Source: a virus. From it: DNA of 64,000 bases. This document shows positions 16,797 through 29,209 of this stretch, piece after piece. The notes beneath the pieces are model-generated. The model was not told the DNA's origin. It did not search any database and saw only the letters and a list, made by a program, of their open reading frames with translations. The first letter of the stretch is position 1, and the number at the start of each line of letters is the position of its first letter. A program made the position numbers and the translations under genes. The stretch is taken from positions 29,105 through 93,104 of IMG/VR virus record IMGVR_UViG_3300031519_008107; one strand, given 5' to 3'.

Positions 16797-17118
16797 TCTT
16801 AATCAGTTAAGCGATGAGCAATTAGACGTTATGATTCAAATGTTACAAAAAACTTTGAGTTCTAGAAGCACTGAAAAAAAACCAGCGGACGAACGTCCAA
16901 ACAAGTTTTTAGAAATGGCTGAGTTCTCAATGCATAAGGCTGACTCTATTATAGATAAGAAGTTGGCTGTTCAACCTCTGACTCCTAGAACTAGAAAGTT
17001 CACTACTATAAAAGTTAGATGCAGAGTTTGTGGTAAGGAAGAAGAGATAAATCCAGCGTTATTGGCTTCAGAAAAGCAAAGATATAAGTGTAACACATGT
17101 TCATCGATTGCGGGTTAG
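16789..17118 (+). CDS. hypothetical protein with C-terminal zinc ribbon
   Basis: CRVCG...YKCNTC. Confidence 0.65.
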   Translation: MDDLNQLSDEQLDVMIQMLQKTLSSRSTEKKPADERPNKFLEMAEFSMHKADSIIDKKLAVQPLTPRTRKFTTIKVRCRVCGKEEEINPALLASEKQRYKCNTCSSIAG

Positions 17119-17119
17119 A

Positions 17120-18577
17120 ATGAAACTTTCAGATAGTGCAGCGGAACGAGCCGTTTTGTCGGGTATCTTCAATTATGGGGAAGATGTCTATTTTGATATT
17201 TGCGACTTGGTGCAAGAACAATCTTTCACGATAGACAGCAATGTTTATCTGTATAAATGTTTTAGGCACATTTTTACTAATAATCAAAATCCTAAGCTAG
17301 ATGTAGCTTTAGTATTATCAGCGGCAGAAGAACTGTCTTTGTCTAAGATATTAACTACAAAAGAAGAAATACAACATCTTCAGGCTATCATTAATTTCCC
17401 TGTAGATAAAGGCAATCTTAGAAAATTTGCGTCTAAGATTAAGAAGTTAGAGATCGCTAGATTATTACAACAACAACTCGAAGAAGCGAAAGATAAAGTT
17501 CTTAAAATCAGCGGTAATGAATCTATTGGAAATATCGTAGGTATTGCTGAAGACATTATCTTTAATTTTACATCAATGTTAAACGACACTGAGGACGCTC
17601 CTACAGAACTTGGTAAAAATATTGAAGATTACATTAAAGATATTATAGAAAACCCTATAGATCAGATAGGTATTCCTACAGGCTTTCCCGTATATGATAA
17701 ATCTATTGGTGGCGGCTTAAGAAAAAGCACTGTCAACGTAATTGCAGCAAGACCTAAAACCGGTAAAACTTTATTGGCAGATAATATGAGTTACAATATT
17801 GCTGCTCACTGTGATGTTCCAGTACTTAATCTAGATACAGAAATGACTAGAGAAGACCATATAAATAGAACATTAGCTATGATGACTGATGTAGAAATTA
17901 ACGAAATAGAAACAGGTAAATTTTCTCAATCTCCCACTAAAACAGATAAGATCACAAAATCTGTAGGTAAATTAAAAAACCTTAAAATTTTCCACAAGTC
18001 TATAGCAGGCAAACCTTTTGAAGATCAGTTGTCTTTAGTTCGTCGATGGTTAATTAAAGATGTGGGATTGAATGAGGACGGCACGGCTAAAGACTGCGTT
18101 ATATTTTATGATTATTTAAAACTGATGGATAGTCAAGGTATGAGTCAAGATATGAAAGAATATCAAGTTCTTGGTTTTATGATGACTCAATTACATAATT
18201 TTGCTACGAAATATAAAGTACCTGTTGTAGCTTTTGTTCAGTTGAATAGGGATGGTATTACTAAAGAAACCACAGATACCGCTAGTGGTTCTGATAGAAT
18301 TATATGGCTCTGTAGTAACTTTACTATTTTTAAAAGAAAAACAGATGAAGAGATAGCAGAGGATGGTCCTGCTGCTGGGAATAGAAAATTACTGCCTGTA
18401 ATCAGTAGACATGGTGGTGGCTTAGACGATAATGATTACATTAACTGTCACATGGAAGGACAGTTTGCTAAAATTAAAGAAGGTAAAACCAGATTGGAGT
18501 TAATGAAATCTGATGACAGCAGCAACGACATACAGGAGTACATTGGTGACAACCAAGAAGAGATTCCCTTCGGTTGA
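17120..18577 (+). CDS. dnaB: replicative DNA helicase
   Basis: AERAVL, GIPTGF..D...GG, AARPKTGKT, DTEM, DYLKLM, QLNR, SGS..I. Confidence 0.92.
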   Translation: MKLSDSAAERAVLSGIFNYGEDVYFDICDLVQEQSFTIDSNVYLYKCFRHIFTNNQNPKLDVALVLSAAEELSLSKILTTKEEIQHLQAIINFPVDKGNLRKFASKIKKLEIARLLQQQLEEAKDKVLKISGNESIGNIVGIAEDIIFNFTSMLNDTEDAPTELGKNIEDYIKDIIENPIDQIGIPTGFPVYDKSIGGGLRKSTVNVIAARPKTGKTLLADNMSYNIAAHCDVPVLNLDTEMTREDHINRTLAMMTDVEINEIETGKFSQSPTKTDKITKSVGKLKNLKIFHKSIAGKPFEDQLSLVRRWLIKDVGLNEDGTAKDCVIFYDYLKLMDSQGMSQDMKEYQVLGFMMTQLHNFATKYKVPVVAFVQLNRDGITKETTDTASGSDRIIWLCSNFTIFKRKTDEEIAEDGPAAGNRKLLPVISRHGGGLDDNDYINCHMEGQFAKIKEGKTRLELMKSDDSSNDIQEYIGDNQEEIPFG

Positions 18578-19700
18578 TCAAAACAAACTGAAAGTTTTGT
18601 GTGATGTCTTATGTGACAAAATTACAGACTTATTAGACTATTTTGATATAGACTATAAAGAAAATGGCAAGATGATCACAATGGCTTGCCCTATTCATGA
18701 TGGCGATAATACATCTGCTATTAATATTTATCATGAAGGAGACATGTATAGAGGTAATTGGAAGTGTAGAACGCATAATTGTGAAGAATGTTTTAAAGGT
18801 TCTATCATTGGATTTATCAGAGGTGTGCTATCAAACAGACAAAAGAACTGGATGAAGCCCGGTGATGAAATGGTGTCTTTCAAAGAGGTTCTAGATTTCT
18901 GCACCAAGTTTACAAACCAGACACTAGAAGATATTAAGATAAATGAAGTTCATACCAATAAGAAAAACTTTACAAATGTTATTAACAATATCTCTAACAA
19001 ACAAGAAAAACATTTAACATACATTAGCCGTAAACAAATTAGATCATCACTAAAAATACCTTCTAAATATTATATTGACCGTGGTTATTCGTCAGGAATC
19101 TTAGATAAATATGATGTCGGGAACTGTACTAGACCTAAAAGAGAAATGTCTGGCAGGATAGTTGTTCCAATTTATAATCCAGAATACAACAATATGATTG
19201 GGTGTTCTGGTAGAAGTGCTTATAATAAGTGCGACAAATGTGGAGGATTCCATGACCCATTGAAGGATTGCCCATCTGCTGAAAATTTATGGAAATATTC
19301 AAAATGGAAACATAACTCTGGATTTAAAGCTCAAGATCATTTATATAATTTTTGGTTTGCGAAAGAAAATATTATTAAGTCATCTTTTGCTATTATACTA
19401 GAAAGTCCCGGCAATGTTTGGAAATTAGAAGAAAATGGTATACATAATAGTGTAGCTATTTTTGGAACTAATTTAAGTGCTAGACAAAAACTATTACTAG
19501 ATAGCTCTGGTGCTATGAGTTTAATTATAATTATGGATAATGATGAAGCTGGTCAAAGAGCAGCACAAAAGATTATAGAGAAATGCGACAGAACATATAA
19601 CACGTATTCTTTAAAAATTAATCAAAACGACATTGGGGATATGTCTCCTGACGAAATACAGAATCAAATAGTTCATAAAATAAAGGGATTGCCTATATGA
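18546..19700 (+). CDS. dnaG: DNA primase (zinc-binding domain plus TOPRIM)
   Basis: CPIH...WKC...C zinc-binding domain, R.VVPI, TOPRIM LESPGN and DNDEAG. Start chosen at GTG 18546 after AGGAG (track start 18513). Confidence 0.85.
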   Translation: MTTKKRFPSVDQNKLKVLCDVLCDKITDLLDYFDIDYKENGKMITMACPIHDGDNTSAINIYHEGDMYRGNWKCRTHNCEECFKGSIIGFIRGVLSNRQKNWMKPGDEMVSFKEVLDFCTKFTNQTLEDIKINEVHTNKKNFTNVINNISNKQEKHLTYISRKQIRSSLKIPSKYYIDRGYSSGILDKYDVGNCTRPKREMSGRIVVPIYNPEYNNMIGCSGRSAYNKCDKCGGFHDPLKDCPSAENLWKYSKWKHNSGFKAQDHLYNFWFAKENIIKSSFAIILESPGNVWKLEENGIHNSVAIFGTNLSARQKLLLDSSGAMSLIIIMDNDEAGQRAAQKIIEKCDRTYNTYSLKINQNDIGDMSPDEIQNQIVHKIKGLPI

Positions 19701-20269
19701 TTATTGCTTTTGCTGGAAGAAAACAATCTGGTAAGACCACCTCCTGTGAATTTGTTCAAAGCCTATTCGCAAACAAAGAAATAAAAACATACAACTTTGC
19801 AGATCCTCTGAAACAATTATGTTTAGATGTTTTAGGACTAAAGTATGAACAGTGTTATGGAACAGACGATAACAAAAACGAATTTGTAGACTGTTATTAC
19901 AATAAACAACAAATGACTGCTAGAGAAGTTCTACAATACGTTGGCACAGATATATTTAGAACTATGCAGCACAATGTTTGGTCATCAGCGACTATTCGAT
20001 TGATACAAAAAGACAAGCCGGATATTGCTTTAGTAGCTGATTGTCGATTCCCGAACGAGGTTGAGGCTGTTAAAAATGCTGGTGGTATAGTAGTAAAACT
20101 TAATAGAAACCTTTATGAGTCTACACATGCAAGCGAAACGGCTCTAGATGACAACAACTATGACCAATCTAATTTCGATCTAGTGATTGCTAACCTTGAG
20201 GGAAGCATTGAAGAAAAGAATAATATCATTAAAAACTTTCTAGCACACAAAGGAATATTACAATTATAA
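19697..20269 (+). CDS. deoxynucleoside monophosphate kinase
   Basis: GRKQSGKT, FADPLK, REVLQ.VGTD, DCRFPNE, HASE. Confidence 0.88.
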   Translation: MIIAFAGRKQSGKTTSCEFVQSLFANKEIKTYNFADPLKQLCLDVLGLKYEQCYGTDDNKNEFVDCYYNKQQMTAREVLQYVGTDIFRTMQHNVWSSATIRLIQKDKPDIALVADCRFPNEVEAVKNAGGIVVKLNRNLYESTHASETALDDNNYDQSNFDLVIANLEGSIEEKNNIIKNFLAHKGILQL

Positions 20270-21294
20270 TCACATATTTCCGCAGTTCGTCTTACAACAC
20301 ACATAATATGTGCGAACAGCAATACTTTTTCGACTATGTATTAGGTTATAGACAGCCATCAAACAAAAAAGCTGACAAAGGGACTATAGTACATAAAGCT
20401 TTAGAAATATTAGCCTTTATCAAGTTCACTGAGCAAAAGGGTGAATCAAGTTTCATTGATGATATTATAGGTGAAGTGAATGTTGGTAACTATAATGTAG
20501 ATAAAATTATTAAACAGGTATACACTTATTATACAGACAACTTTGATCATCACGAGTGGACTGAGAAAGATTTTAAGGATTGCTATAAATGGACTTATAA
20601 AGCAATTAATTACGCTGACGGTATGTTTGATCCAAGAAATCGTAATATCTTATATCCTGAACAGCGTTTCGACATAACTATAGATAAACCTTGGGCAAAA
20701 TATGATTATGGTGATTTAAAAGGCCAATTAGCAATGAAGGGTACTATAGATTTAATAACCAGACCTAGTGAAGATACTTTAGAAATTATTGACTGGAAAA
20801 CAGGACGCAGACTAGATTGGGCTACTGGACAAGAAAAAACACAAGAGAAGTTAGAAACAGATCCTCAACTTATGATTTATTTCTATGCTGCTAAAAAACT
20901 ATATCCCGAAATTAAAAACTGTATAGTAACTATATTTTTTATTAATGATGGTGGACCTTTTAGTGTGAGTTTTAATGATAGCGACGTACATGCAACAGAA
21001 GATCTAATTAGAGAAAAATTCTCACATATTAAAAAGTGCAAGCTGCCTAAACTCAGTAAAAGCTGGAAATGCACAAAACTGTGTATGTATGGCAAAACAA
21101 CGTTTGAAAACACTCGAATACCGGCAATATCTGAATATAGAGATCGTCAGTGCTGTAATGTTGGAGAGACTATGACTATGTGTGAACAGGTTAAACATGA
21201 CATTCAGCTGAAAGGCATAAAAGAAGTGGTTGACGAATACACTGTTCCCGGTTATAATGTAGGACATTACCAAGCACCCGGAAGTACGGAATGA
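20263..21294 (+). CDS. Cas4/AddB-like PD-(D/E)xK exonuclease with putative Fe-S cysteines; probable ATT start
   Basis: SSS....MC, GTIVH.ALE, GTIDL, IIDWKTG, QL..Y, C..LC. Frame is open upstream of ATG 20308 to ATT 20263, which has an AAGGA SD. Confidence 0.8.
   Translation: MIITYFRSSSYNTHNMCEQQYFFDYVLGYRQPSNKKADKGTIVHKALEILAFIKFTEQKGESSFIDDIIGEVNVGNYNVDKIIKQVYTYYTDNFDHHEWTEKDFKDCYKWTYKAINYADGMFDPRNRNILYPEQRFDITIDKPWAKYDYGDLKGQLAMKGTIDLITRPSEDTLEIIDWKTGRRLDWATGQEKTQEKLETDPQLMIYFYAAKKLYPEIKNCIVTIFFINDGGPFSVSFNDSDVHATEDLIREKFSHIKKCKLPKLSKSWKCTKLCMYGKTTFENTRIPAISEYRDRQCCNVGETMTMCEQVKHDIQLKGIKEVVDEYTVPGYNVGHYQAPGSTE
21230..21258 (+). promoter_or_regulatory. sigma70-type promoter inside the nuclease CDS, upstream of dnaE-N
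   Basis: TTGACG-17 nt-TATAAT, 33 nt before the ATG at 21291. Confidence 0.7.
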
Positions 21295-23147
21295 AGAAAT
21301 ATACCCCCTTGCATGTGCATACGCACTACTCATTATTGGACGGTCTTAGTAAACCAGAAGATATTGCACAACGATGTAATAAATTAGAAGTCTCTAGTTG
21401 TGCCATCACAGATCATGGCACTATCTCTGGATGTATTCAATTTTATTCTACGATGAAAAGTCATGGCATTAAACCAATCTTAGGTACGGAGTTATATCTT
21501 TGTGAGAATTCTCCTGAAGTCAAAGATACTAACAATAAAAAACTATCTCATATTGTTCTTTTAGCCAAGAACTTACAGGGTTGGAAAAATTTAATTAATA
21601 TTGTTTCTCATTCTAATAAACCAGAACATTATTATTATAAACCAAGACTTGATCTCAATAGCTTGTATGAATTAGTAGATGGTAATATCATTTGTCTTTG
21701 TGGACATCCCGGTTCGTATTTAGCTAATCAAATTTATCAAGAAGGAAAATTCGTTAATGATCGTACTATAGAATCAAAAGTTAAAGAACTACAAGAAATT
21801 TTTGGTAAGCAAAATACATTTGTAGAAATTCAACTTAATGATCAGACTAATGAGTATCAACAAAATGTTGGATTAAAACTCAGAGATTTTTGTAAGTCTA
21901 GAGATATTCAAACAATGGCTAGTCTAGATGCCCATTACTGTGAATCTCAAGACAGTGCGGATCAACGAATACTATTATGTAGTAATCTCAAACTTACTTT
22001 GCCTCAAGTCGCATCTAAAATGAGTAATGATGAAAACTTTAGCATGAGCAGTTTCTTTAAATCAGATCAATATCACATATTATCTCATGAAGAAATGCAT
22101 CAGGTTAATACTGAACAAGAGATAGAGAATACTAATTTGATAGACGGTATGTGTGAAGAGTATGAAATATTAAACAAGCCAGTACTGCCTAACTTTAGTT
22201 GTCCTAATAATTTAACACCTGATGAATATTTAAGACAACTGTCTCGTGATGGCTGGAAAGATAAAATTCAAGGCAATGTTGATAATCAAAACCAACAAGA
22301 ATATGTAGATCGTATTAAATATGAATTAGAAGTTTTGCAATCTGCCAATTTATCAAGCTACTTTCTAATAGTTCAAGATATTGTTAACTATCTTAGGCAG
22401 GAAGAATGGCTACCGGGGCCCGGAAGAGGAAGTGCTGCTGGCTGTTTGGTATCTTACTTAATTGGTATCACATCTATTGACCCAATTAAATATGATCTTA
22501 TTTTTGAAAGATTTTACAATGCTGGTAGAAATACTGGCGGTAGAGTATCCATGCCTGATATTGATGTTGACGTACCTATTAATCATAGGGAAGAAATTAT
22601 AGATTATATCAAAAATACATATGGTAGCAATAAAGTTTCTCAAATGATTACATATAATACGCTTAAAGGTAGGGGAGCCTTAAAAGAAGTACTAAGAGTA
22701 TATGGTAATATATCTTTTGATGAAATGAATCAAATCACTAAATTCCTACCTGACGAAGCTAAAATTGCAGACGAATTACAAGAAATGAAAGACGAAAGCG
22801 GAGAATCATCTATTATACAATGGGCTTTAGAAAACAACTCTAAAAAACTAAAAGATTGGTGCCACATAAAAGATGGTAAACTACAAGGCCCTCTTGCTAA
22901 AAGATTTGAACAGGCTATTCGATTGGAGGGAACCAAATATAATCAGTCGAAACATGCTGCTGGGATCGCCATATCTAGGCACGATCTATCAACAGTATGT
23001 CCCATGATCTATGATACCAAAACAAAACAAAGTATTGCTGGATTAGAAATGAATGATTTGGAATCTATAGGTGTGGTTAAGTTCGATATTCTTGGTATAG
23101 CATTATTAGATAAAATTATGCAAATTAAACAATATCTAAAGGAGTAA
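21291..23147 (+). CDS. dnaE: DNA polymerase III alpha, N-terminal half (PHP, palm, thumb)
   Basis: HVHTHYSLLDG, TDHG, DAHY, GRGSAAG, FERF, PDIDVD, HAAG, KFDILG, then stop. Confidence 0.93.
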   Translation: MKKYTPLHVHTHYSLLDGLSKPEDIAQRCNKLEVSSCAITDHGTISGCIQFYSTMKSHGIKPILGTELYLCENSPEVKDTNNKKLSHIVLLAKNLQGWKNLINIVSHSNKPEHYYYKPRLDLNSLYELVDGNIICLCGHPGSYLANQIYQEGKFVNDRTIESKVKELQEIFGKQNTFVEIQLNDQTNEYQQNVGLKLRDFCKSRDIQTMASLDAHYCESQDSADQRILLCSNLKLTLPQVASKMSNDENFSMSSFFKSDQYHILSHEEMHQVNTEQEIENTNLIDGMCEEYEILNKPVLPNFSCPNNLTPDEYLRQLSRDGWKDKIQGNVDNQNQQEYVDRIKYELEVLQSANLSSYFLIVQDIVNYLRQEEWLPGPGRGSAAGCLVSYLIGITSIDPIKYDLIFERFYNAGRNTGGRVSMPDIDVDVPINHREEIIDYIKNTYGSNKVSQMITYNTLKGRGALKEVLRVYGNISFDEMNQITKFLPDEAKIADELQEMKDESGESSIIQWALENNSKKLKDWCHIKDGKLQGPLAKRFEQAIRLEGTKYNQSKHAAGIAISRHDLSTVCPMIYDTKTKQSIAGLEMNDLESIGVVKFDILGIALLDKIMQIKQYLKE

Positions 23148-23152
23148 ACTAA

Positions 23153-23332
23153 ATGCAATTTTATAAATTGACTGATGATTGCCCATTTTTTATTAATGGT
23201 GAAGAGTATCAAAAAGTAAAAGAGGAAAGAATAAGCTGTTGCAAGATTAAACTAAATGCCTACAAGTTAATGGAGGACGGAGAAAAGAAACCCGTTGTCA
23301 TACAGCCTAAACAAGAGGTTTCACTACCATAA
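23153..23332 (+). CDS. 59-aa hypothetical protein between the dnaE halves
   Basis: Below the track cutoff. AAGGAG SD, ATG 23153, MQFYKLTDDCPFFINGEEYQKVKEERISCCKIK...; TAATG overlap with the next gene. Confidence 0.75.
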   Translation: MQFYKLTDDCPFFINGEEYQKVKEERISCCKIKLNAYKLMEDGEKKPVVIQPKQEVSLP

Positions 23333-24042
23333 TGAATAATAATAAAATATGTGTATTTGATTTTGAAACTGATGGTATCGACCCTACAGTATGTAGTCCC
23401 GTGCAATTATCTGCGGTTATAGTAGATCCCCATAAATTAGAGATCGTAAAAAACTCTGAATTTAATATTTATCTAAAGCCAGAAAAATTAGAAAAAGCTA
23501 AATCTGTAACCATAGATAATCATCCGTATACTGACTCTGATATTTTGGAGTGGCATGGTAAGGTTAAGGGCGTTGATAAATCAGAGATATTAAACAGTTG
23601 GATGGAATATCCTGACGCTAAACTATCATGGAAACAATTCATGGATTATTTAGACTCTTACCACCTGTTTAGAACTGGAGGCAAGAAAACTAAATTCTCA
23701 GCCCCCATAGCATCAGGATATAATATCATGAGTTTTGACATGAAGATTATAGACCGACTTGCTAAAAAACATGGTGGGTACGACAATAAAGGAAAAGCTA
23801 ACTCCATATTCCATCCTAGAGATAAGATTGATATTATGAACCTTGTCTATATTTGGTTTAGATTTATACCAGAAATTAAGTCTATATCATTAGATAATGT
23901 CAGAGGGTATTTGGGAGTTGATGCCACCAATGCACATGATGCGGTAAAGGATGTTAAAGATTGTGCGGACATTCTTATCAGATTTTTAAAACTTCATAAG
24001 AATTTTGCCTCTAAAGTACAATTTAAAGATTCATTTAGATGA
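23332..24042 (+). CDS. DEDDh 3'-5' exonuclease (DnaQ/epsilon-like)
   Basis: ExoI DFETDG, ExoII YNIMSFD, ExoIII HDAVKD. Confidence 0.88.
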   Translation: MNNNKICVFDFETDGIDPTVCSPVQLSAVIVDPHKLEIVKNSEFNIYLKPEKLEKAKSVTIDNHPYTDSDILEWHGKVKGVDKSEILNSWMEYPDAKLSWKQFMDYLDSYHLFRTGGKKTKFSAPIASGYNIMSFDMKIIDRLAKKHGGYDNKGKANSIFHPRDKIDIMNLVYIWFRFIPEIKSISLDNVRGYLGVDATNAHDAVKDVKDCADILIRFLKLHKNFASKVQFKDSFR

Positions 24043-25637
24043 TAAAGAAAAAAATACAATTTAAATCTTGTGGTTGCGTTTTTCCAACAATGGACGGACG
24101 TATTGATTACGATATTAATACAGCCAATATGAATCTTGAATGTCAGGAAACTTGGAATCTAATAGGTTCTGGCAATACCAAGGGATGTTTTCAGCTTGAG
24201 TCTCGACTTGGGCAAATGATGTCTAAAAAGTTAAAGCCTGAAAATATAGAACAATTAGCTGCTCTAATCAGTATTATGAGGCCGGGTTGCCTAGAGGCTT
24301 ATAGAGAAGGTAAAAGTGTTAGTGATCATTATATTGATAAGAAGAATGGCTCTGAATCAGTAGATTATTTCCATCCGTCTTTAGAGCCTGTGTTAAAATC
24401 GACTTATGGTGAAATGATCTATCAAGAACAATCTATGGAGATAGCTAGAGTAATTGCTGGTTTTAATCTAGAAGATGCAGATGTTTTGCGTAAGGCAATC
24501 GGGAAAAAGAAAGTTGACCTTATGACACAAGTTAAACGATCTTTTCTCTTAGGGGCAGAAAAATCTAACATAGTTTCAAATGAAATTGCTGAAGAAATCT
24601 TTGGCTGGATTGAAAAGAGCCAGAGGTATAGCTTTAACAAATCACATGCTATTAGTTATGCTTTAAACGCATATCTGTCAGCATATTCTAAATGTCATTT
24701 CCCATCATACTTTTTTGCGTCTTATCTCAAGTTTGCTCCAGATAAGATAGATCCAATGAAAGAAATTTATGAACTAATTAATAATTGTAGAGAAATGCAC
24801 ATAGATGTACACAAGCCTGACTTTAAAAAGATATCTAGTACATTTAGTATAGATAACGGCAAAGATATATTCTTTGGTTTAACAAATATTAAAGGCGTAG
24901 GGAATTCTGTATACAATAAACTTGAAGTGTTAGTTGAAAATATAGACATAGATAATATGTCTTACCTAGAAATTATATTGAATATTTTAATCAACATCAA
25001 TCAAACTGCTAGTAAAGCTATGATTAGTGTTGGTTGTTTTGATTATTTAGGGGTAGGTAGAAAAGAAATGCTATTCCACTTCGGACTGCTAAATGATTTA
25101 ACAAAAAAAGAAAAGGGTATTCTCTTAGCTAATATAAATGATCTTAAAAAAGTTGGGGATTGTTTAGACTTTTTAGGAGATAAAGTTAATATCAGGCGTA
25201 AACAAAAGATATTAGCATTACACAGTACTCTTAAACACCCTCCATATAAGTTAGAAGACTCATGTTCATGGATAGCAGATCAAGAAAATCAATTGCTAGG
25301 TATAAGTGTTACATGCTCTAAAATAGATGAGTATAGTTTAGAAAATGTTAATACAACCTGTAGAGAAATAAATCAAGAAAAATGTTTATATAGAAGCATG
25401 ATATTAGGTGTCGAAATTAAAGATGTCAATATCATCAAGACTAAAAGAGGGGCTAATCCCGGACAAGAAATGTGTTTTGCTAAAGTCTCTGATAACACTG
25501 GCTCTACAGATATTGTGGTATTCCCGGATAAGTATCTCCAATATAAGAATATTATAACGTCAGATAATACAGCTATTGTTAGTTTAGAGAAGTCTAAAAA
25601 TGGAAGCATGGTTTTAAGTAAAATTTGGCAATTATGA
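24039..25637 (+). CDS. dnaE: DNA polymerase III alpha, C-terminal half (fingers, HhH, OB)
   Basis: G.FQLES, RPG, YQEQ, LRKAIGKK, YSFNKSHA, FGL..IKGVG, OB-fold M.F...D.TG...VVFP. Confidence 0.92.
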   Translation: MIKKKIQFKSCGCVFPTMDGRIDYDINTANMNLECQETWNLIGSGNTKGCFQLESRLGQMMSKKLKPENIEQLAALISIMRPGCLEAYREGKSVSDHYIDKKNGSESVDYFHPSLEPVLKSTYGEMIYQEQSMEIARVIAGFNLEDADVLRKAIGKKKVDLMTQVKRSFLLGAEKSNIVSNEIAEEIFGWIEKSQRYSFNKSHAISYALNAYLSAYSKCHFPSYFFASYLKFAPDKIDPMKEIYELINNCREMHIDVHKPDFKKISSTFSIDNGKDIFFGLTNIKGVGNSVYNKLEVLVENIDIDNMSYLEIILNILININQTASKAMISVGCFDYLGVGRKEMLFHFGLLNDLTKKEKGILLANINDLKKVGDCLDFLGDKVNIRRKQKILALHSTLKHPPYKLEDSCSWIADQENQLLGISVTCSKIDEYSLENVNTTCREINQEKCLYRSMILGVEIKDVNIIKTKRGANPGQEMCFAKVSDNTGSTDIVVFPDKYLQYKNIITSDNTAIVSLEKSKNGSMVLSKIWQL

Positions 25638-25638
25638 A

Positions 25639-25672
25639 TTGACTATTGAAGAAGCATTTGTATTATAGTGTA
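25639..25672 (+). promoter_or_regulatory. ssb promoter region: sigma70-like TTGACT-16-TATTAT plus GTGTA motif
   Basis: Intergenic; GTGTA at 25668, 44 nt before the ATG. Confidence 0.5.
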
Positions 25673-25711
25673 TGTTGAGTTTTCGTTACTTTAATTGAAA
25701 AAGGAGCTGAT

Positions 25712-26089
25712 ATGAACCTTTGTGTTTTAAAGGGTAATCTTGCCCGTGACCCTGAACTGCGGAGTGTAACTACTGGCAGTCGTGAAACTTCGGTAGTAAA
25801 TTTTACCGTTGCTGTTTCTAGGGAATATCGTAAGTCAGATGGTTCTACTGACAAAAATACCACGTTTGTTAATTGTGAGGCTTGGGATAGTGGAGCAGAA
25901 GCTATTGCCTCTTCCTTTAATAAGGGTGACCTAGTTATGTTGGAAGGATCTTTAAGGAATGACAACTGGGAAAAGGATGGAGTAAAGCACTCATCTATGA
26001 AGGTGAGAGTAAGTAACTTTGGTAAGATCACTAAAACCAAGGTTAATAAACAACAGGAAACCAAGGAAGAAGCCGTAACGGCATTCTGA
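25712..26089 (+). CDS. ssb: single-stranded DNA-binding protein
   Basis: GNLARDPELR, F.VAV, W...AE, KGD.V..EG.L...W; SD AAGGAG. Confidence 0.95.
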   Translation: MNLCVLKGNLARDPELRSVTTGSRETSVVNFTVAVSREYRKSDGSTDKNTTFVNCEAWDSGAEAIASSFNKGDLVMLEGSLRNDNWEKDGVKHSSMKVRVSNFGKITKTKVNKQQETKEEAVTAF

Positions 26090-26096
26090 GAATATT

Positions 26097-27716
26097 ATGA
26101 AAAGAAGGATAATGATGCTGACCGAATCTGGACATATACATTCCGGATTTGGAAACTATACTCGTAACATATTGTCTAGACTTCATAGTACTGGAAAATA
26201 TGAATTAGCCGAATTGTCCTGCTATCGTGATAAACATGTTCCTAACAAAGAACCTTGGAAAATTTATCCAAATGTTCCCACAGAGCCAGAAGCGTCTAAA
26301 AGATTCAATACTGTTTCTTCTTCCGCTTTTGGTGCTTGGGGTTTTGAGCCAGCATGTTTAGACTTTAGACCTGATATTGTATTTGACGTTAGAGATTACT
26401 GGATGCTTAATTTCCCAGAATACTCTCCATTACGACCATTTTTTAATTGGGTTTTAGCACCAACCATAGACTCCGCACCACAAAGAAAAGAGTGGATGCA
26501 GACATATAGTAATGCAGATCTAGTATCTGGTCATACTCAATGGGGTGTGGATGTTTTAAATAAAGCTAAATATATCAACACTACAGAACCAGTAAACGAC
26601 TCTGTTGATGTTAATGTTTTTTATCCTGAGTCTATAGACAAAAAGGCTAATAAGGCCAATCATTTTATAGATCCTAATGATTTTCTGGTCGGTTCTGTTA
26701 TGCGTAATCAAAAACGCAAGCTTATCCCTAACTTAATTAAAGTTATAAAACAATTAAGTAATAAATACCCTAATATAAAATTACACCTTCATACTAGCTA
26801 TCCAGATCACGCTGGATGGGCATTACCTGATATATTATTAGAGCATAACGCCTCTGACTTAGTTTATTTGACATATAAGTGTAGAAGTTGTGGAGCTATG
26901 TCAGTGATGAAATTCAAGAATGGGATGGCAATGTGCCCTCATTGTAACAAACCTACAGCTACAATATGCAACGTTTCTCATGGCCTAGACGATAGTCAAT
27001 TAAAGACAGTGTTTAACTTATTTGACTGTTATGTTCAATATGCTATTTGTGAAGGCTTTGGTATTCCTGTAGTAGAAGCCGCAGCTTGTGGAGTGCCTGT
27101 TATAACAGCTAATCATGGAGCTATGGCTGAAATTGGTGAGAATTTAAATGCAAGAATTACTAAGGTTGGTACAACGTTTAGAGAACTAGAAACAAACGCT
27201 GACAGAATTTTACCTGACGACGAAGATCTTTATAAGCATATTGAAGCAGAATACTTGCAGCAAAAAGATAGAAGTTGGATCAGTAACCTAAAAGCTATTC
27301 AAGAGAATAGAGACAATCTTGTTAGTCATTATACTTGGGACAAAACAGCAGAAACTTTTGAACGAATTTTTGACAACATAGAATTAACTGGATTGCAGGG
27401 CAAGTGGGACTCTCCTCCTTTACCTCTTAGCGATAATACCAATATAGATGTTGGTACAAATAATAGGGAAACTATAGGTCGTATTATATGCGATGTGATT
27501 AAGTCTCCATACTTACTTAGAACAGCTCTAGTTCAAGGAATGATTCAAAACTTAGACAATGGTTTCGTAATGGATGGTGGCAGTATTAAAAATTATGATT
27601 TCGGAACTGCTGGTAAATTATTAGACCAACTTTACAATTCTAAAAAAACGTGGGAAAGTATTAGATTGGGTAAAACTGCTTTACCTAATGACTTTAAAGA
27701 AGTTATAACATATTAA
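26097..27716 (+). CDS. GT4-family glycosyltransferase with zinc-ribbon insertion
   Basis: SGFG, RNQKRK, EGFGIPVVEAAACGVP; insert CRSC...CPHC. Confidence 0.85.
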   Translation: MKRRIMMLTESGHIHSGFGNYTRNILSRLHSTGKYELAELSCYRDKHVPNKEPWKIYPNVPTEPEASKRFNTVSSSAFGAWGFEPACLDFRPDIVFDVRDYWMLNFPEYSPLRPFFNWVLAPTIDSAPQRKEWMQTYSNADLVSGHTQWGVDVLNKAKYINTTEPVNDSVDVNVFYPESIDKKANKANHFIDPNDFLVGSVMRNQKRKLIPNLIKVIKQLSNKYPNIKLHLHTSYPDHAGWALPDILLEHNASDLVYLTYKCRSCGAMSVMKFKNGMAMCPHCNKPTATICNVSHGLDDSQLKTVFNLFDCYVQYAICEGFGIPVVEAAACGVPVITANHGAMAEIGENLNARITKVGTTFRELETNADRILPDDEDLYKHIEAEYLQQKDRSWISNLKAIQENRDNLVSHYTWDKTAETFERIFDNIELTGLQGKWDSPPLPLSDNTNIDVGTNNRETIGRIICDVIKSPYLLRTALVQGMIQNLDNGFVMDGGSIKNYDFGTAGKLLDQLYNSKKTWESIRLGKTALPNDFKEVITY

Positions 27717-28772: not shown

Positions 28773-29209
28773 TAGGTAATTTATTAAATAAAGAAAAGGG
28801 ACAAATATCTATATTATGGATACCTTCTCAAGATACTATGTTTGAAAAAAACTTTAAAACGCTCAATTATTCGTGTTGCAATCTAGACAATTTATTTTTA
28901 GGTAAATATCACCCTAATTTAATTATAACAAATAATAAACTCATAAAATTAGATCATATCATTAATCTTTGTTTAATACATTATTGTAATTTAATTGTCA
29001 TAGATCATGAAGAACAACCAGACATTGTATCGGTAGATAAAATTACAGCTAAACTTAAGTTGGTTCCCAATGTTTTAGAAATTTCTATGAGTGACAGAAT
29101 TTATAATTCTTGGGGGAAAAGACATGATGTAGTTTGCAAATCAGATTTCCAAATATTAGATTTAAAAGAAATTATAGATAAATTTGCGGAGAAATTATTT
29201 ATACTATGA
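28769..29209 (+). CDS. hypothetical protein
   Basis: Overlap-coupled within the GT operon. Confidence 0.6.
   Translation: MIGNLLNKEKGQISILWIPSQDTMFEKNFKTLNYSCCNLDNLFLGKYHPNLIITNNKLIKLDHIINLCLIHYCNLIVIDHEEQPDIVSVDKITAKLKLVPNVLEISMSDRIYNSWGKRHDVVCKSDFQILDLKEIIDKFAEKLFIL

Follow-up and report, generated by a model that had tools for sequence, protein, structure and literature searches.

The alpha subunit of DNA polymerase III is the textbook single-chain replicase of bacteria, and its proofreader is coupled to it in different ways, as an in-frame exonuclease domain in PolC and through a separate epsilon gene in E. coli. Polymerases encoded in two pieces also exist, such as the split gp43 of some T4-like phages and the split PolB of Methanothermobacter. 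Here we describe a full-length C-family polymerase, DnaE, divided between two genes (DnaE-N and DnaE-C), with the genes of a 59-residue microprotein and a DEDDh exonuclease lying between the halves. The locus is part of a stretch of 64,000 nucleotides (the window; positions 29,105 to 93,104 of IMG/VR record IMGVR_UViG_3300031519_008107) from an uncultured marine phage, whose 93-kb viral record has 33% GC and is estimated to be 66% complete.

Closest in kind are enzymes that, like the polymerase of the window, are encoded in two open reading frames (ORFs). In phage PhiKZ, DNAP-N and DNAP-C form an intein-less 1:1 complex of family B (PMC13648687), and NrdA of Aeh1, split by mobE, assembles from two pieces without an intein, its new terminal segments possibly acting as adaptors (PMC3045599). 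The window polymerase differs from the former in belonging to family C, with an association that we infer from the genes, and from the latter in having a proofreader and a conserved microprotein, not a homing endonuclease, between its halves. DnaE in two pieces is itself known from cyanobacteria, where the halves carry a split intein, and from the 'fractured genes' that Dassa et al. described in 2009 (PMC2677866), in which split-intein halves are combined with a homing endonuclease. Fractured genes are found in the same wider phage group, with the same synteny from the PDDEXK nuclease to the single-stranded DNA-binding protein (SSB) (loci L111/L112), but in those known forms the break lies after the fingers or at FNKSH and the pieces are spliced to one chain, whereas the window gene is broken at another site and has no intein. 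For group 2.2 jumbo phages, Iyer et al. 2021 (PMC7824862) predicted a Pol III alpha module reconstituted from two proteins, but this is a minimal core that lacks PHP, helix-hairpin-helix (HhH) and OB domains and is encoded by distant genes alongside a family B polymerase; in contrast, the window has a full-length DnaE in adjacent genes as its only detectable polymerase. Finally, PolC of Firmicutes also carries a DEDDh exonuclease within the polymerase coding region, but as an in-frame domain in PHP, while that of the window has a gene of its own, located at the break between palm and fingers. Intein-less split polymerases are thus already known; a full-text literature search yielded no account of a full-length DnaE that is divided in this loop and has a nested exonuclease, and split DnaE is not mentioned in a 2026 survey of bacterial polymerases.

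Two open reading frames cover one DnaE polymerase

The four genes and the elements at their borders are arranged as follows.

21291–23147, + strand: DnaE-N, 618 aa, with PHP, palm, thumb and the first helix past KFDILG
23136–23152, + strand: junction of DnaE-N and the microprotein gene, read directly
23153–23332, + strand: microprotein, 59 aa, without a Pfam or PHROG family
23332–24042, + strand: DnaQ-like DEDDh 3'-5' exonuclease, 236 aa
24039–25637, + strand: DnaE-C, 532 aa, with fingers, HhH and C-terminal OB fold
24039–24119, + strand: DnaE-C leader, about 27 aa, new (from the junction comparison and an AlphaFold2 (AF2) model)

DnaE-N matches the Pfam families PHP (7e-39) and DNA_pol3_alpha (1e-71). 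It contains the catalytic aspartate triad D423, D425 and D599, which corresponds in the alignment to D463, D465 and D618 of the Taq enzyme and is invariant in 158–159 of 159 family members. All nine PHP metal-ligand positions are ligand-competent in the Taq alignment (H8, H10, D17, H42, E67, H87, H139, D213 and H215), in agreement with a preliminary description of the window, made from the sequence alone, in which the ligands had looked intact. DnaE-C matches DNA_pol3_finger (5e-44) and, above cut-off, HHH_6; its OB domain falls under the Pfam cut-off (20.2 vs 27) and is visible in the AF2 model as a beta-barrel at residues 453–531. The fingers motifs GCFQLES, LRKAIGKKK and FNKSH are all in DnaE-C, which is alignable to E. 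coli residues 586–1053, and they are invariant among 58 C halves. Modeled alone, DnaE-C folds confidently, with a mean predicted local distance difference test score (pLDDT) of 91.4. Compared with single-chain DnaE (Taq 2HPI/3E0D, E. coli 2HNH/5FKU and that of phages PK-1, GBK1 and vB_BpsS-36), the two halves align end to end and share domain order, Asp triad, fingers and nine-ligand PHP; the differences are the two chains, the new leader of DnaE-C, the two genes in between and the absence of the tau-binding C-terminal domain.

That essentially nothing is lost at the split, as the preliminary description had it, is borne out by three comparisons. DnaE-N and DnaE-C cover positions 41–616 and 623–1059 of PHROG 405, and 1–572 and 578–1022 of TIGR00594, respectively. 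Compared with the gene of a sister phage that is continuous at this place (L111), DnaE-N ends directly after the helix following KFDILG, and the ancestral sequence resumes without loss at about residue 28 of DnaE-C, the ~27 preceding residues being new. In the alignments with solved enzymes, N residue 617 corresponds to Taq alpha 636, C residue 30 to Taq 647 and C residue 28 to E. coli 586. The previously noted end of DnaE-N, 16 residues past KFDILG, is correct, but DnaE-C does not restart just before GCFQLES: homology begins ~20 residues upstream of that motif, after the leader. Likewise, the split is at the palm/fingers junction only approximately. Counted from E. coli D555 (N D599), it maps close to E. 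coli 574/575, in a variable loop at the surface that follows the palm/fingers border of Lamers et al. 2006 by one helix. Because the break is in such a loop, each half can fold independently.

The stop codon after DnaE-N residue 618 is real and DnaE-C is an ORF initiated by its own ATG 892 nt downstream, so that the locus does not encode the single-polypeptide catalytic core of a DnaE-type polymerase. The last codons of DnaE-N (AAG GAG TAA) provide a Shine-Dalgarno-like AAGGAG 8 nt before the ATG of the microprotein, the microprotein stop overlaps the exonuclease start in TAATG and the exonuclease stop overlaps the DnaE-C start in ATGA. The ORFs and junctions, read directly, are in this respect just as first described. 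Scanning of the four-gene block found no terminator-like site, and its promoter matches were no better than chance. Together, the overlapping stops and starts and the lack of a terminator favour co-production of the subunits.

The preliminary description had seen no obvious clamp-binding motif. DnaE-C does contain a weakly motif-like LDFL that aligns with the internal beta-binding site of E. coli; it was rejected as a clamp motif, since the consensus of the family does not preserve it.

Conservation of the split and absence of splicing elements

Among 90%-identity clusters, of which the 8,000 best-matching candidates were scored, at least 7,966 contain relatives of DnaE-N; the best 120 of these are nearly all 610–636 aa long and originate from marine and freshwater metagenomes. 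In the 50%-identity library, about 143 of the 150 top-ranking clusters (37–63% identity) end within ~45 residues past the third catalytic Asp motif. The remainder comprises six continuous forms and P0269 (762 aa), an N half in which an unrelated extra C-terminal domain of ~150 aa (starting ...SGGQTGADIAGL) takes the place of the stop. In these aquatic phages, a very large group that has been sampled globally, the dominant form of the polymerase has palm and fingers on separate proteins, and thousands of ~620-aa entries annotated as 'DNA polymerase III alpha' are halves rather than fragments.

About 125 of 130 independent IMG/VR contigs, with identities as low as 37%, share the gene order N-(micro)-exo-C: 102 loci have N-micro-exo(-C), 22 have N-exo(-C) without the microprotein (the L116–L132 subclade, L113–L115, L025 and L026), and two have a fractured-intein form in which the exonuclease gene lies upstream of a gene continuous over palm and fingers. 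As the same architecture occurs in so many independent contigs, chance and misassembly are excluded. Relaxed selection, another concern raised in the preliminary description, is not seen either, the ratio of nonsynonymous to synonymous substitution rates (dN/dS; 14 pairs) being 0.02–0.05 for DnaE-N, 0.005–0.07 for the exonuclease, 0.02–0.07 for DnaE-C and 0–0.28 for the microprotein, which indicates purifying selection. The locus thus has the character of a gene in pieces, with two colinear ORFs that cover the ancestral protein and are both selected.

The slots N|exo and exo|C are a hot spot for cargo and in some relatives hold additional genes, encoding ThyX, a DUF1559 pilin-like protein, a UDG, a NaeI-like endonuclease and RCC1-like proteins of 792–863 aa. 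Each slot gains about 0.3–2.8 kb in this way, and the halves are up to ~3.5 kb apart when microprotein, cargo and exonuclease are counted. The halves stay intact despite such intervening cargo and are therefore independent cistrons. Examples are found in L019 (8066–10444), L020 (8077–10668), L087 (8764–11391), L026 (7756–10218) and L121 (7466–7984); the DUF1559 protein has a pilin N-methylation motif.

Four CheckV-complete relatives (160–231 kb) encode one DnaE palm each. Neither PolA nor PolB nor a beta clamp was detected in these four genomes or in the window's own record.

We found nothing that could splice the halves, so the enzyme is most likely a non-covalent assembly. Pfam searches of DnaE-N, the microprotein and DnaE-C gave no Hint or Intein_splicing match at E<=0.01, in agreement with the earlier statement that neither end carries intein motifs, although the identical search does detect inteins in the relatives P0156, P0159, P0194, L111, L067 and L125. 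The cyanobacterial split-intein site (RYSFNKSH) is continuous within DnaE-C, as also noted before. The features of a split-intein gene are therefore absent here: there are no Hint blocks at the break, the break is not at the site preceding FNKSH, and neither of the two intervening genes encodes a homing endonuclease. An Rfam cmscan of 20000–27000 at E<=1 for group I and II introns returned only a chance match to the histone stem-loop on the opposite strand.

Inteins do occur in the family at various places: in the N half of P0159 and P0194, in the fingers of P0156, L067 and L125, and as split inteins with a Vsr/NUMOD3 endonuclease in the 'fractured gene' layout (L111/L112, P0150, P0172). The C halves of L067 (8750–11113) and L125 (8328–10673) carry a full intein with an HNH endonuclease in the fingers, showing that split and intein-invaded states coexist. 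In L111/L112 (5312–10687), the exonuclease gene precedes dnaE with a 4-nt overlap, and DnaE is unbroken over palm and fingers and cut after the fingers by a split intein with a NUMOD3/Vsr-like endonuclease.

A putative multi-subunit replicase and its alternatives

Cumulatively, these findings suggest that the locus encodes a non-covalent, multi-subunit C-family replicase made of separate chains, to which we give a probability of about 0.8 from the sequence evidence. This reading, which upholds the earlier proposal of a heteromeric enzyme with an active site assembled from two polypeptides, is based on two ORFs that cover the whole of DnaE without loss, with the Asp triad in one and the dNTP-binding fingers in the other; on the absence of inteins and introns and the persistence of the split down to 37% identity; and on purifying selection on both halves, together with the status of DnaE as sole polymerase in four complete relatives. 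No other reading accommodates all of these points. In the proposed enzyme, the three catalytic aspartates would come from DnaE-N together with PHP, palm and thumb, and DnaE-C would add the HhH motif, the OB fold and the fingers that bind the incoming dNTP. The two chains would meet at the native interface of palm and fingers and build a single active site together, and the exonuclease encoded between them would act as an epsilon-like proofreader. Such an enzyme would present a test case for how subunits can share an active site in the absence of inteins, a split site already validated by nature at which C-family polymerases could be engineered in two pieces and, with an exonuclease gene nested between the halves, a third way of coupling a proofreader with DnaE.

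The exonuclease matches Pfam RNase_T at residues 8–215 with 37.6 bits (cut-off 24) and PHROG 192, 'DNA polymerase exonuclease subunit' (6e-21), possesses Exo I (DxE, FDFETDG), Exo II (NxxxFD, YNIMSFD) and Exo III (Hx4D, HDAVKD) motifs and has the exonuclease domain of PolC (2P1J) as its closest solved structure. Its last residues, K-[VI]-x-F-K-D-[SAC]-F, are kept across distant clades (24010–24039 in the window; also L081, L020, L026 and L025), and this conserved C-terminus may serve as a peptide that docks onto the polymerase or onto a clamp. In this phage the PHP site is probably active and would contribute a further nuclease. The two proofreading activities envisaged in the preliminary description are therefore plausible here, where PHP and DEDDh motifs are both intact, but they are not general, because 20 of 21 loci without the microprotein have lost PHP ligands (e.g. 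L116–L132, L026). Overall, 74 of 82 microprotein-containing loci have an intact nine-ligand signature, against 1 of 21 without the microprotein, a comparison that rests on few, phylogenetically dependent contrasts; in either group the Asp triad of the polymerase is invariant.

The microprotein family (64 sequences aligned, mean identity 33%) has invariant F12, C29, C30 and V56. AF2 predicts an all-beta, SH3-like barrel (pLDDT 95.7), in which an S-C-C triplet occupies the loop between strands 17–26 and 32–39, at the tip of a hairpin. Fold searches gave only generic SH3, Tudor, KOW and EF-P domain I matches (Foldseek E>=0.1; VIA Z<=4.8), no Pfam or PHROG family was matched, and the ESM Atlas returned just unnamed viral clusters at 0.85. 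The candidate identity of Pol III theta (HolE) was rejected, given the all-beta model of the microprotein and the three-helix bundle of this epsilon partner. The leader of DnaE-C, which has no counterpart in continuous DnaE, contains a conserved [FY]xCGCxF motif and is modeled as a beta-hairpin (strands 4–7 and 14–18, pLDDT about 80–87) with CGC at its tip. Its occurrence largely follows that of the microprotein: among unique C halves, 63 have the CxC leader in the presence of the microprotein and 16 lack both, while two lack the leader in the presence of the microprotein (L081, L020) and one has the leader in its absence (L026). In the subclade of this phage, the SH3-like microprotein with its exposed Cys-Cys hairpin and the CGC beta-hairpin leader probably stabilise the complex, and the two may cooperate by sharing a metal site or by adding a beta-sheet. 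A more specific version, that the two hairpins form an intermolecular zinc-ribbon-like metal site, a clasp fixing the fingers to the palm and perhaps also tying in an active PHP or the exonuclease, is tentative, and we regard it as rather unlikely; if true, it would make the replicase a four-protein enzyme whose assembly is possibly redox- or metal-controlled. Some loci without the microprotein have a different ORF of 72–76 aa straight after DnaE-N (L025 7282–7497, L026 7554–7775, L113 5266–5493), with a C-terminal helix that, judged by eye, resembles AP2-type DNA-binding modules.

Several observations weigh against the multi-subunit replicase or against parts of it. Neither a clamp nor a clamp loader was detected. 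The window's own record is just 66% complete. A search for proteins fusing the microprotein with another domain, itself a weak negative, found none. Strict coupling of CC and CGC as a rule was rejected on account of L081, L020 and L026, and whole clades are devoid of both microprotein and CGC leader.

The missing clamp and clamp loader would fit a reading in which no polymerase is formed at all, with DnaE-N serving as a PHP nuclease or phosphoesterase, DnaE-C as a DNA-binding factor and host polymerases copying the phage genome. We consider this improbable, though it is the strongest of the rivals: the Asp triad and the fingers motifs are invariant while it is the PHP ligands that decay, N and C are always found next to each other, and their genes belong to a full replication module. 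This single co-directional module spans 17108–26089 on the + strand (Pfam and ORF reading) and includes, in addition to the four genes described above:

17108–18577, + strand: DnaB-type replicative helicase at the module start (Pfam DnaB_C 4e-28 and DnaB N-terminal domain)
18513–19700, + strand: Toprim-domain primase (Pfam Toprim_4 1e-12)
19697–20269, + strand: dNMP kinase (Pfam DNMK 3e-15)
20308–21294, + strand: PD-(D/E)XK nuclease (Pfam PDDEXK_1 6e-16), syntenic in all related loci, its stop overlapping the DnaE-N start in ATGA
25712–26089, + strand: SSB (Pfam SSB 1.5e-23), syntenic in related loci, at the end of the conserved block

The other explanations concern how a single chain might still arise, or whether the break is real. 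Post-translational joining of the halves through trans-splicing or ligation of an unrecognised kind, for instance one involving the Cys-rich leader and the microprotein, could draw on the conserved cysteines at the new N-terminus of DnaE-C (CGC) and in the microprotein (CC), and on the split-intein DnaE genes of sister phages (L111; PMC2677866). However, Hint or intein blocks are lacking in N, microprotein and C, the end of DnaE-N has no Cys/Ser nucleophile block, the microprotein is an SH3-like barrel and not a Hint fold, and clades with neither CGC nor microprotein (L116–L132, L025) keep the same split under selection, which leaves this route very improbable. We give slightly less credence still to a continuous polymerase made through an intron carrying the inner ORFs or through translational bypass. 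Phage DnaE genes with intron-typical gaps exist, such as the three-piece gene of Bacillus phage WH1, but no Rfam group I or II intron was found here even at E<=1, the inner genes are conserved, selected and overlap the flanking genes with their stops and starts, the gap varies from 0.7 to ~3.5 kb and can contain unrelated cargo genes, and DnaE-C has its own ATG and a conserved leader. Least credible of all is an assembly artefact or recently broken pseudogene, conceivable for an incomplete metagenomic contig: the identical break recurs in about 125 contigs of many samples and in thousands of ~620-aa protein clusters, and dN/dS is far under 1, observations that refute this explanation.

History of the split and the cultured phage phiT1

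Continuous forms of the polymerase fall into two separate, well-supported clades nested among the split forms (FastTree with 162 rows; IQ-TREE with 56 rows), and placing all continuous forms together, a group named after the tree had been seen, is rejected by the approximately unbiased (AU) test (delta lnL 144, p=0.009). Two nested continuous clades imply that the gene was re-fused at least twice or that the same loop was cut repeatedly. Searches for related loci starting from the continuous P0175 and P0209 retrieved only split loci or the fractured-intein L111/L112, and the search from P0152 retrieved none; L111/L112 are the only loci in which the position of the exonuclease beside a continuous gene is seen.

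A second case of a DnaE cut in this loop, past the KFDxLG helix, is found in the cultured Rossellomorea (Bacillaceae) phage phiT1 (L134, PV767480; 3986–7268), in which gp20 (573 aa) and gp18 (469 aa, starting MFDILDIPLDD) are separated by gp19 (49 aa). Like the window, phiT1 thus has a small ORF between the halves, but it has no exonuclease there, and its 49-aa ORF is unrelated and contains no Cys. The phiT1 protein is ~32% identical to DnaE-N of the window and 33–37% identical to its counterparts in PK-1, GBK1 and vB_BpsS-36, phages of Bacillus and Geobacillus hosts that were likewise among the DnaE hits and have one continuous dnaE gene. At such distances from both, the two splits may be either homologous or convergent, and a recent split within the Bacillus phage lineage, considered as an explanation for phiT1, could not be shown. 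Based on the two nested continuous clades (AU p=0.009) and phiT1, the loop may be a recurrent hot spot that was split and re-fused several times; taken jointly with the metal clasp, this is a speculative proposal that we hold well below even odds.

Other cuts of phage DnaE lie elsewhere, at about residue 410 in Jayan and at the borders of the three pieces in WH1. A nucleotide search of phage GenBank records, a collection possibly without near-identical records of the window, gave only a 78-nt match to Bacillus phage G and no close relative in culture. In L133 (4274–6261), the N half is itself encoded by two overlapping ORFs (376 and 289 aa) and is broken in the palm, at DNA_pol3_alpha position 99, which could represent a third natural break or a frameshift error. 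As phiT1 is in culture, it is a possible laboratory model, and with this phage and ordinary co-expression the idea of a polymerase assembled from two chains is directly testable.

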